Positions 12,174-51,165 of a stretch of 64,000 nt of DNA are shown here, piece after piece. Made by a program: the position numbers and the translations under genes. The stretch's first letter is position 1; every line of letters begins with the position of its first letter. This stretch comes from Anaerolineae bacterium (GTDB lineage: Bacteria; Chloroflexota; Anaerolineae; CG2-30-64-16). The notes below the pieces were generated by a model. The model had not been told where the DNA came from and ran no database searches. It was given only the letters and a program-made list of their open reading frames with translations. The DNA lies in assembly GCA_040772005.1 (NCBI GenBank), contig JAXGYZ010000002.1:101546-165545 (forward strand). The letters are read 5' to 3'.

Positions 12174-13109
12174 TTAGCCGGCTGGCGTCGGCGTAACGGT
12201 GGTCTGGGGCGTGTCGGTCTGGCCGGAGGTCTCGGTGACGCCTTCCGGGTTGACGACCCAGGTGCGCTCGACGACCTGTCCCACGTTGCCCATGGTGCCC
12301 AGGTCTTCGCCGTTCAGGATGAGCGTGACCCCGCCGCCGTTGCCTGTGCGGATGGTAATCGAGTCCGCGGCCTCATAGACGCGCGAGGCGTTTGCATCGA
12401 GCGTGCCTTCCTCCGCGACCTCTCCGTCCACCAGGATACGCATCCATGCGCGCTGCGTAGTCACGACCTCTAACAAGAGCGCCGATACAAATTCAGGGGT
12501 GGCGGTCGGGCGCAGTGTCGGCGTCGCAGAAGCCTGCACTGTGGGCGTCGGCAGCGGCAGCAGGTCCGAGGTCGGCTCAGGCAGAGGCGCGGTCGGCGTC
12601 TCGGAGGGCTTCGGCGTGGCAGTGACAACCCACTGGGTCGCGGTGTTGGTGGGCGTGGCGCTGGCCGCGGGGCCAAACGCCGCCAGCGGATTCCAGCCCG
12701 GATTACGGTTCAACAGCCACCAGCCGCCCAGCGCTAGAAGCAAGACGAAGGCCAACGCAGCCACCCAGGGCAGCCAGCGTGACCCGGCCATCGGGTCCAC
12801 CAGCTCGACTTCCAGGGGCCGGTAATCAATCAGGCGCGGCTTGCCTGGCTCCGCGATCGCAATCTCCGGGTTGGTATCCCCGCTCTCTATGCTGTAGAGA
12901 TCGAGAACGCCCTCGACGTCCAGGCCGAGATACGCGGCATAGGTGCGCACGAACCCGCGCGCGACTGTGCCGCGCGGCAGGCTGGCATAATCACCATTTT
13001 CCAGGGCTTCGAGATATCTCTGGCGGATGCGCGTGACCGCTTCAACGTCGGCCAGGCTGAGTTGTTTCGCCGTGCGCGCCTCGTACAAAAGGCGCCCGAG
13101 CTCACTCAT
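12174..13109 (-). CDS. rodZ: RodZ-like cytoskeleton protein (XRE-type HTH, TM helix, Pro/Thr-rich linker, C-terminal DUF4115)
   Basis: Start at ATG 13109 (MSELGRLLYEARTAKQLSLADVEAVTRIR is an HTH_XRE motif), one TM segment, PT-rich linker, conserved C-terminal domain. Confidence 0.55.
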   Translation of the reverse strand: MSELGRLLYEARTAKQLSLADVEAVTRIRQRYLEALENGDYASLPRGTVARGFVRTYAAYLGLDVEGVLDLYSIESGDTNPEIAIAEPGKPRLIDYRPLEVELVDPMAGSRWLPWVAALAFVLLLALGGWWLLNRNPGWNPLAAFGPAASATPTNTATQWVVTATPKPSETPTAPLPEPTSDLLPLPTPTVQASATPTLRPTATPEFVSALLLEVVTTQRAWMRILVDGEVAEEGTLDANASRVYEAADSITIRTGNGGGVTLILNGEDLGTMGNVGQVVERTWVVNPEGVTETSGQTDTPQTTVTPTPAG

Positions 13110-13203
13110 ACGATGTTGTGTCCTGATACGTGATAGTAGACAGAACAAATATACCCGCGGCGGGGCGAAAAGTCAAAAACTATGCTTATCCGGCCCCCAT
13201 CTC

Positions 13204-13357
13204 TCAGGAATTCCAAATGTGGATTGCCAGGCATCCTGAGCGGAGGGTGTTGCGGAGCAACGCACGCAGTCGAAGGATAGCCACTGTGCAGGCGTGCTTC
13301 GACTACGCTCCGCTCCGCTCAGCATGCCTGCACCCTCGCGCACATCTGGAATTCCTG
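13204..13357 (+). mobile_element. MITE-like insertion with 17-bp terminal inverted repeats and a 9-bp flanking direct repeat
   Basis: TIR-left caggaattccaaatgtg (13204-13220) and TIR-right cacatctggaattcctg (13341-13357) are reverse complements with one mismatch. The direct repeat cccatctct sits immediately outside both ends (13195-13203 and 13359-13367). No ORF inside. Confidence 0.5.
13228..13330 (+). ncRNA. candidate structured RNA element, copy X (homologous to 51025-51165)
   Basis: Long P1 helix (CAGGCAUCCUGAGCGGAGG ... CUCCGCUCAGCAUGCCUG), inner hairpin GUGUUGC-GGAG-CAACGCAC, and a second helix GCAGUCGAAGG ... CUUCGACUAC. The helix-forming sequences are shared with copy Y while the enclosed hairpins differ. 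Confidence 0.4.
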
Positions 13358-13416
13358 CCCCATCTCTACTGCTTATTGCGCAAACATCCGCTTACGGGTA
13401 TCATGCGGGCAACCCT

Positions 13417-14109
13417 ATGCGCCGCAAAACTGTCCACCGCGCGCGTCGCGGCCTGCTGCTCATCATCGGCCTGGCGATCATTGCTTCGGTTTGGTCGGCG
13501 GAGCAGGTTGCGCGCGCCGGCTACGGGCCGGCATGGCTGCAATTCTTGTTCGCGGCCACCGGGCCTACGGGCGGCCTGCGCGTCGGGCTCGTCGCCGGCC
13601 ACCGGGGCAATGACTCCGGCACTGTCTGCCCGGATGGACTGACGGAGGTCGAGGTCAACACGCGCATCGCGGAACTGACCGCAGACCGGCTGCGCAGCCA
13701 GGGGATGCGCGTGGATGTGCTGGACGAACTGGATGCCCGGCTGTTCTTCTATCGCGCGGACGCTTTCGTCTCCATCCACACGGACTCCTGCCAGGCCAAT
13801 CTGAGCGGCTTCAAGGTTGCCCCGCCGGACGGCGGCAGCGCAGCCTCGCGGCGGCTGGCCGAGTGCCTGTGGGACGAGTACGAGGCTGCCAGTGGCCTGC
13901 CCCGCCATCCGACCACCATCACCCGGGATATGACCGAGTATCATGCCTTCCGCAAGCTGGCGCCCGGCACGCCCGCGGCCATCATCGAGCTGGGCTTCCT
14001 GGGCACGGATCGGGCGCTCCTGGTCGATGAGCCGGAGCGGCTGGCGGACGGCGTAGCCGCCGGCATCATCTGCTTTCTGACGCCGGCGATGGCGACCCAG
14101 GAGCCGTGA
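13417..14109 (+). CDS. N-acetylmuramoyl-L-alanine amidase (Amidase_3 family, cell-wall hydrolase)
   Basis: Signal/TM segment, then the zinc-amidase core GHRGNDSGTVCPDGLTEVEVN ... FVSIHTDS. Start taken at ATG 13417 (MRRKTVHRARRGLLLIIGLAI). Confidence 0.7.
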   Translation: MRRKTVHRARRGLLLIIGLAIIASVWSAEQVARAGYGPAWLQFLFAATGPTGGLRVGLVAGHRGNDSGTVCPDGLTEVEVNTRIAELTADRLRSQGMRVDVLDELDARLFFYRADAFVSIHTDSCQANLSGFKVAPPDGGSAASRRLAECLWDEYEAASGLPRHPTTITRDMTEYHAFRKLAPGTPAAIIELGFLGTDRALLVDEPERLADGVAAGIICFLTPAMATQEP

Positions 14110-20383: not shown

Positions 20384-20581
20384 ATGGTTGGCACATCCGG
20401 ACGGGGGGCTCCACCCTGCATCCTTCGACTGGCGGCCTTTCGCCCCTTGCGTTGAGCCGTTCACCCGCTCAGGATGCGTCTTTCGTCCATCGTCCATCGT
20501 CGACCGTCATTATACCCGCGCACAGAGGCCGGGGCCAATCATGCTATAATGTCGCGTATCCCAGTATGAGGTGACAGATTC

Positions 20582-50977: not shown

Positions 50978-51024
50978 ACGACGGTCCTTCACCGGAGGAT
51001 GTGTCCTGCTCTCCGGACACCGGG

Positions 51025-51165
51025 CATCCTGAGCGGAGGCCCGCCATAGGCGGGGCGCAGTCGAAGGGTGCGGCCATTTTGCGACCGCTCCGCCCCTTCG
51101 ACTACGTGCGTTGCTGTGCCAGGCGTAGCCTGGCCCTAACGCCCTCCGCTCAGGGTGCTCCGCTC
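51025..51165 (+). ncRNA. candidate structured RNA element, copy Y (homologous to 13228-13330), in the 5' leader of the ABC-transporter substrate-binding-protein gene
   Basis: Shares with copy X the P1 strands (GGGCAUCCUGAGCGGAGG ... CCCUCCGCUCAGGGUGC) and the GCAGUCGAAGG ... CCUUCGACUACG helix, while the enclosed hairpins differ in sequence (CCCGCC-AUA-GGCGGGG; GCCAGGC-GUA-GCCUGGC). Confidence 0.4.

Follow-up and report, generated by a model that had tools for sequence, protein, structure and literature searches.

The 153-bp segment at positions 13205-13357 of the window, by which we mean the whole 64-kb stretch of DNA that was analysed, is a real MITE. Very probably this element was mobilised in trans by the Tn5-like transposase of an IS family, landed between two promoters and has no present role. 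Its ends and the repeats that flank it are as follows:

13195-13204, no strand: left direct-repeat copy (target-site duplication, TSD), CCCCATCTCT
13205-13221, plus strand: left TIR (TIR-L), CAGGAATTCCAAATGTG
13341-13357, minus strand: right TIR (TIR-R), CACATCTGGAATTCCTG as read, reverse complement CAGGAATTCCAGATGTG
13358-13367, no strand: right direct-repeat copy (target-site duplication), CCCCATCTCT
Search word for the TIR family: CAGGAATTCCAAAT

In a repeat search of the window, TIR-L and the inverted TIR-R, with arms of 17 nt, were identical at 16 of 17 positions. The direct repeat CCCCATCTCT consists of 10 identical bases and adjoins both TIRs without a spacer. Within it lies the 9-bp duplication of family length (CCCATCTCT, 13196-13204), and the tenth identical base, an extra C, is probably a coincidence. 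The original prediction had described a MITE-like insertion with 17-bp TIRs differing at one position, a 9-bp duplication and an interior of 154 bp without an ORF. The arm length and the single mismatch held, but the left part of the element had been placed one base off (TIR-L occupies 13205-13221). Likewise, 9 bp is the correct length for the family, but the repeat in the window runs to 10 identical bases (13195-13204 and 13358-13367); and the lack of an ORF was right, but the element measures 153 bp from TIR to TIR. Both the ORF list and the sequence showed that no ORF is contained inside the element, and the predicted ORFs that cross it are read-through frames in GC-rich DNA. The element folds into a single long hairpin, with a predicted energy of -82.3 kcal/mol as RNA (z = -6.0) and -47.2 kcal/mol as DNA (z = -6.5).

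A second TIR copy was not found elsewhere in the 64-kb window, nor was an autonomous IS copy, and the chance expectation of the TIR 17-mer is 0.16 per window when up to 3 mismatches are allowed. We scanned for the complete structure, defined as 14-nt inverted repeats with at most 1 mismatch, 40-600 bp apart and abutting direct repeats of 7-12 bp. The element at 13205-13357 was the sole match in the real window, and 200 Markov-simulated windows yielded none. Short repeats are common in general, which is the one point in favour of an inverted and a direct repeat that met by chance in GC-rich intergenic DNA; set against the simulated windows, such a coincidence has practically no probability left, and it is already refuted by the other members of the family, by the empty site and by an IS that shares its ends, all described below.

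The element lies within 307 bp of DNA that separate two divergent genes:

12174-13109, minus strand: RodZ-like HTH gene (HTH_25 / RodZ_C in orthologues)
13148-13176, minus strand: sigma-70-like promoter of the RodZ-like gene, TTGACT-17-TATATT, from the promoter scan
13376-13404, plus strand: promoter-like block on the amidase side, TTGCGC-N17-TATCAT, from conservation among orthologues
13417-14109, plus strand: N-acetylmuramoyl-L-alanine amidase gene (Amidase_3 in 2035 homologues)

Orthologues of the amidase begin at the ATG at 13417. An exact look-up of the RodZ-like protein and of the amidase returned no identical entry. Both putative promoters are outside the element: the -35 hexamer of the RodZ-like gene is 28 bp from TIR-L, and the amidase block is 18 bp from TIR-R and ends 12 nt 5' of the ATG. 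The promoter scan detected no site inside the element or directed into it. In the form TTGCRC-N17-TATSAT the amidase block is kept in all six orthologous regions, with conservation collapsing just upstream; since it scores below the threshold of the promoter scan, we treat it as an inferred promoter. If the conserved block is the promoter, this suggests that the amidase mRNA is leaderless or nearly so, and the element would therefore lie between the promoters and outside the leader. Its location in the amidase leader, as first proposed, is thus probably wrong, and the element probably sits 5' of the amidase promoter, in the gap that separates it from the divergent promoter of the RodZ-like gene. 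With the element removed, the two promoters would stand back-to-back about 36 bp apart.

Orthologous loci were found through amidase homologues. The most informative was L129 (92% protein identity in the amidase, approximately 90% in DNA), which aligns with the window on both flanks and is short of exactly 163 columns, corresponding to the 153-bp element plus one copy of the 10-bp repeat. A single target copy remains, and the empty site reads ...tccggcccccatgtccccggcttattgcg...; the few base differences between this target and that of the window are expected, because the DNA is only about 90% identical. The element is absent as well from L122-125 (84% amidase identity) and from the syntenic L121 (80%). 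L126-128 (positions 1-48; 89%) carry a different member of the family, the end of which abuts ttattgcgc, 15 bp nearer the gene, and L120 (positions 60-105; 93%) has a TIR-like end, matching at 14 of 17 positions, to the left of ctcatccggcccc. Related elements have therefore entered this spacer at least three times independently, and the insertions, at least three within about 40 bp, are every one upstream of the conserved -35 block. One further locus, L119:1490-2203 (GCA_040770385.1, JAXGJG010000078.1), is 97.5% identical to the window over the right half of the MITE, the TSD and the first part of the amidase gene. The left half of the MITE differs, as do both neighbouring genes, and the match stops within the amidase gene; L119 is probably an assembly chimera joined at repeat copies. 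In L121 (5047-6720) the amidase gene is followed downstream by a URO-D gene and then by genes for a Mu-type DDE_2 transposase and a MuB-like AAA protein.

The position of the element, exactly between two promoters, could indicate that it has been domesticated and serves to insulate the RodZ-like and amidase genes or to adjust how strongly they are expressed, through the 163-bp shift, the A/T-rich TIR or a cruciform. Its strong hairpin potential is consistent with such a role, as is the fact that two other lineages independently carry related elements in this spacer. We nevertheless regard domestication as unlikely, since the element is missing from the relatives at 92%, 84% and 80% identity, which keep the same promoter blocks, and repeated insertion is equally expected in a permissive, non-essential spacer. 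A neutral insertion, presumably flanked by two working promoters, is the reading we prefer. The presence/absence polymorphism and the three independent insertions in one 36-bp spacer are usable for a study of target choice.

Further copies of the TIR were sought by scanning CAGGAATTCCARATGTG across 185,579 species-representative genomes. This returned at least 118 loci, a number of the same order as the chance expectation. Among the matches listed, those outside Chloroflexota were scattered singletons, and at least 47 of the 118 listed loci came from about 10 Anaerolineae/Chloroflexota genomes, including NJ_NJASGE3bin.1, binchicken_co16_159, R69_164, Prado092, H66_683, CG2_30_64_16 and Ca. Amarolinea aalborgensis. 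At these 47 listed loci, short non-coding elements terminate in the 17-mer, and at least four unrelated interiors can be told apart among them. An inverted partner was present 120-330 bp away for 24 matches among the listed loci. Exact TSDs flank 13 of these 24 pairs (9 bp, but 10 bp in two), another four are flanked by repeats identical at 8 of 9 positions, and the TSD length of the family is 9 bp. In the remaining matches the partner end has degenerated or the element is truncated by the end of a contig, where many family copies are found. Unpaired matches in the genome loci belonged to short MITEs throughout, with no transposase. The layout of the window, with the TIR enclosing a doublet of the repeat unit X described below, recurs at L006, L028, L109 and L119 (genomes R69_164, H66_683, Prado092 and GCA_040770385.1). 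The subterminal sequence of TIR-R, GCATGCCTGCACCCTCGCG, is common to copies in L006, L076 and L119, and the right subterminal sequence of the element in the window is also present in R69_164 and GCA_040770385.1. Viral contigs scanned for the TIR gave 8 scattered single matches. Words from the TIR sequence had no match in the literature searched, and searches on MITEs in Chloroflexi and on ISNCY returned REP and MITE background only.

In one MITE of NJ_NJASGE3bin.1 (L015:1352-1420), GAAGACATCTGGA, a partial inverted copy of the inner half of the TIR, is present in tandem triplicate just inside the TIR. One candidate IS was rejected: in L073, two TIRs separated by 2128 bp have an ATPase gene and no transposase between them, and represent two MITEs. 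When ORFs were clustered across the loci to look for recurrent proteins, ABC ATPases and two-component paralogues were all that emerged.

No autonomous IS was present in the genome loci from the TIR scan; it was a metagenome scan for the TIR that led to one, in contig L345. Here a 1695-bp element with one 448-aa ORF runs from an exact TIR (64-80) to an inverted copy whose last position is 1758, and the left end of this IS is identical to TIR-L of the window. The ORF has two compensating frameshifts near residues 355-395, near the C-terminus. IS with matching TIRs were also identified in L378 (1659 bp) and L379-385 (1634 bp), giving an overall size of 1.63-1.70 kb, and contigs with two transposase homologues hold elements of 1634-1659 bp whose ends read CAGGAATTCCAAATGTA or differ from it slightly. 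Exact 9-bp TSDs flank the copies in L378 (acgacaggc), L380 (caaggtgac) and L383 (cgcgcaaag). Several other IS-bearing metagenome contigs had mismatched flanks, mixed from different copies, most simply explained as assembly chimeras between copies. The sequence common to IS and MITE is limited to approximately the first 20 nt. With TIR copies in Chloroflexota genomes (13 pairs with exact 9-10 bp TSDs), an orthologous site in L129 that is 163 bp shorter and retains a single target copy, and autonomous elements of 1.63-1.70 kb sharing the TIR and flanked by exact 9-bp TSDs all found, the idea of a MITE-like insertion at this position was borne out.

The IS transposase has 7134 homologues at E <= 1e-5, typically of 447 aa. 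Many of them are on contigs of 1.6-2 kb, and none has a Pfam domain; one was named 'ISNCY family transposase' by NCBI. Searches of Pfam and NCBIfam gave no match at their thresholds for the transposase family. Below threshold, DDE_Tnp_1_assoc was recorded for 24 of 38 aligned members (best E 1.9e-4) and DDE_Tnp_1 for 6 of 38 (best E 1.3e-3), and no member reached the Pfam gathering score for IS4/Tn5-like (DDE_Tnp_1) membership. A profile search of PDB sequences returned no match to the transposase. An AlphaFold model of the protein was obtained with a pLDDT of 79.6 and a pTM of 0.83, and the top five Foldseek matches were all Tn5 transposase (E 7e-10 to 3e-9, probability 1.0, about 430 aligned columns), with a moderate TM-score of about 0.45. 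The next matches were piggyBac transposases. Acidic residues are invariant at D127, D215/D216 and E340/E342, and may form the catalytic DDE triad. The partner transposase is accordingly predicted to have a Tn5-like DDE fold.

Tn5/IS50 cleaves its target in a staggered manner that creates 9-bp TSDs, and this length matches the 9-bp TSDs of both the IS and the MITEs. IS50/Tn5 (IS4 family) and ISAs1 resemble the partner IS in having one transposase gene between short TIRs and 9-bp TSDs, and the weak matches to DDE_Tnp_1_assoc and DDE_Tnp_1 correspond to an ISAs1-type architecture. In ISfinder, ISAs1 ends begin with CAGGG and its TSDs are 8-10 bp. Unlike IS50/Tn5 and ISAs1, the partner family remains below the Pfam and NCBIfam cut-offs and has no PDB sequence match, and ISNCY is the sole name it has been given.

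From the ends, the TSD length and the predicted fold we infer that this copy was mobilised by this transposase family, with cut-and-paste DDE chemistry. The transposase of the approximately 1.65-kb, ISNCY-labelled IS, a single protein of about 447 aa, would recognise CAGGAATTCCAAATGTG in trans and cut the target with a 9-bp stagger, and subsequent gap repair would leave the flanking duplication CCCATCTCT. The element would have inserted in the spacer of about 36 bp between the divergent RodZ-like and amidase promoters, leaving both intact. Its interior is an inverted pair of X units supplying the hairpin, not a deleted IS, and its present role is most likely none, that of a selfish, tolerated insertion.

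Known bacterial MITEs include Nezha in cyanobacteria, RUP in S. pneumoniae and Correia/NEMIS in Neisseria (PMC3733652). Like these, which are 70-300 bp long with 15-30 bp TIRs and a TSD, the element is non-coding and forms a robust hairpin (PMC3733652); it is also MITE-like in its intergenic position beside genes and in being presumably moved in trans by the transposase of an IS, through recognition of its TIRs. It is unlike known MITEs in that its partner IS is an unclassified Tn5-like family and its TIR is absent from the literature searched, and also in that its interior is a doublet of a separate palindromic repeat and one TIR bounds at least four unrelated interiors. For annotation, this means that the region is to be labelled as mobile DNA and not as amidase leader RNA or a regulatory element. 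Short repeats that fragment Anaerolineae/Chloroflexota metagenome assemblies are now linked to a likely driver, a transposase family with more than 7000 homologues that the Pfam and NCBIfam models do not recognise and that has a predicted Tn5-like fold.

The interior of the element consists of two units of the repeat X:

13228-13283, plus strand: X unit 1, CAGGCATCC-TGAGCGGAGG-(hairpin GTGTTGC GGA GCAACGC)-ACGCAGTCGAAGGAT
13289-13330, minus strand: X unit 2, inverted, CAGGCATGC-TGAGCGGAGCGGAGCGTAGTCGAAGCACGCCTG, forming a long hairpin with unit 1

Each unit is laid out as a short stem, TGAGCGGAG, a variable hairpin, GYAGTCGAA and a short stem, and the consensus reads ..AT CCTGAGCGGAG (variable hairpin) GYAGTCGAAGG AT... 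In many units GYAG precedes TCGAAGG, and several have GTAG beside the 3' arm. The window contains X at two other sites, both without TIRs or a duplication. At about 51020-51160 (plus strand) an inverted doublet lies between two plus-strand genes and folds at -105.9 kcal/mol (z = -7.8), and at about 20415-20480 (minus strand) a single unit lies between divergent genes. Doublets without TIRs were also present in L006 and L119.

These TIR-less doublets, the inverted palindromic arrangement of the interior and the GTAG beside the 3' arm in several units are what would be seen if the insertion were a REP/REPIN-type doublet moved by a RAYT (IS200/IS605-like) tyrosine transposase, with the TIRs and the direct repeat incidental. 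Transposition of the IS200/IS605 type leaves no TSD, however, and the gap at the empty site extends exactly from TIR to TIR plus one TSD copy. Since, in addition, elements with unrelated interiors and a DDE-type IS have these TIRs and 9-bp TSDs as well, movement by a RAYT is very unlikely, and we retain the MITE mobilised by the Tn5-like transposase. X was delivered by this transposon, since neither the TIRs nor X are present at the empty site.

The original prediction had raised the possibility that a structured RNA module was delivered into the leader by a non-autonomous transposon. Delivery by a transposon stands, but the cargo is a repeat unit that belongs to no Rfam family. At the gathering threshold no Rfam family was found in the window, where only chance-level matches appeared at E up to 10, and none matched in 12 contigs rich in X units. 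Nothing suggests that the element is transcribed or shows that X acts as RNA at this locus, no promoter-like site being directed into it. The same evidence bears on a native structured cis-regulatory RNA (riboswitch- or attenuator-like) in the amidase 5' leader, of which the repeats would be by-products. The very stable predicted fold and the retention of the inner hairpin of X despite sequence variation would suit such an RNA, but the element is missing from orthologous loci and lies upstream of a promoter-like block that is only 12 nt from the ATG. Given also that Rfam offered no match, that no promoter-like site points into the element and that the TIR bounds unrelated interiors elsewhere, a native leader RNA is highly improbable, and the transposon insertion again accounts for the sequence better.

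Outside the window, the pattern CCTGAGCGG-N(8-38)-AGTCGAAGG was found in more than 120 contigs of the viral collection (L138-L257; e.g. L186, L183, L246 and L142). The commonest form is 28 nt long. Several contigs are multi-copy, usually with the copies within one contig on the same strand, and inverted pairs occur again among some of them. When the inner segment was at least 16 nt, 86 distinct inner sequences were counted among 88 X units, and 87.5% of the 88 folded better than their own shuffles. The flanks seldom pair beyond AT/CC..GG/AT. A long covarying outer helix around X was rejected, as pairing of the flanks was no better than in mismatched controls in most copies. So was a hammerhead or K-turn reading of the arms, in which the hammerhead core CUGAUGA/GAAA was unmatched (judged by eye) and which had no Rfam support.

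Words from X had no match in the literature searched; with neither an Rfam nor a literature match, X is therefore, by its behaviour, placed as a REP/REPIN-type repeat of wide distribution (background on REP/REPIN and MITEs in PMC3733652). Like REP, BIME and REPIN sequences, the X units are short imperfect palindromes in many copies, intergenic and often arranged as inverted doublets that form long hairpins. Unlike in these, the hairpin of X, which differs in sequence in almost every copy, is enclosed by loop-like arms that are conserved (TGAGCGGAG / GYAGTCGAA), and X is spread across many unrelated contigs instead of being confined to one genome. That X is an unclassified structured element acting as RNA or single-stranded DNA, with the MITEs of the Tn5-like IS family as one of its vehicles, is an improbable reading; if true, a non-autonomous transposon would be spreading a functional module through promoter-proximal DNA in Chloroflexota. 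As a widespread, unclassified palindromic unit, X is the sole part of the element that may lead somewhere new.
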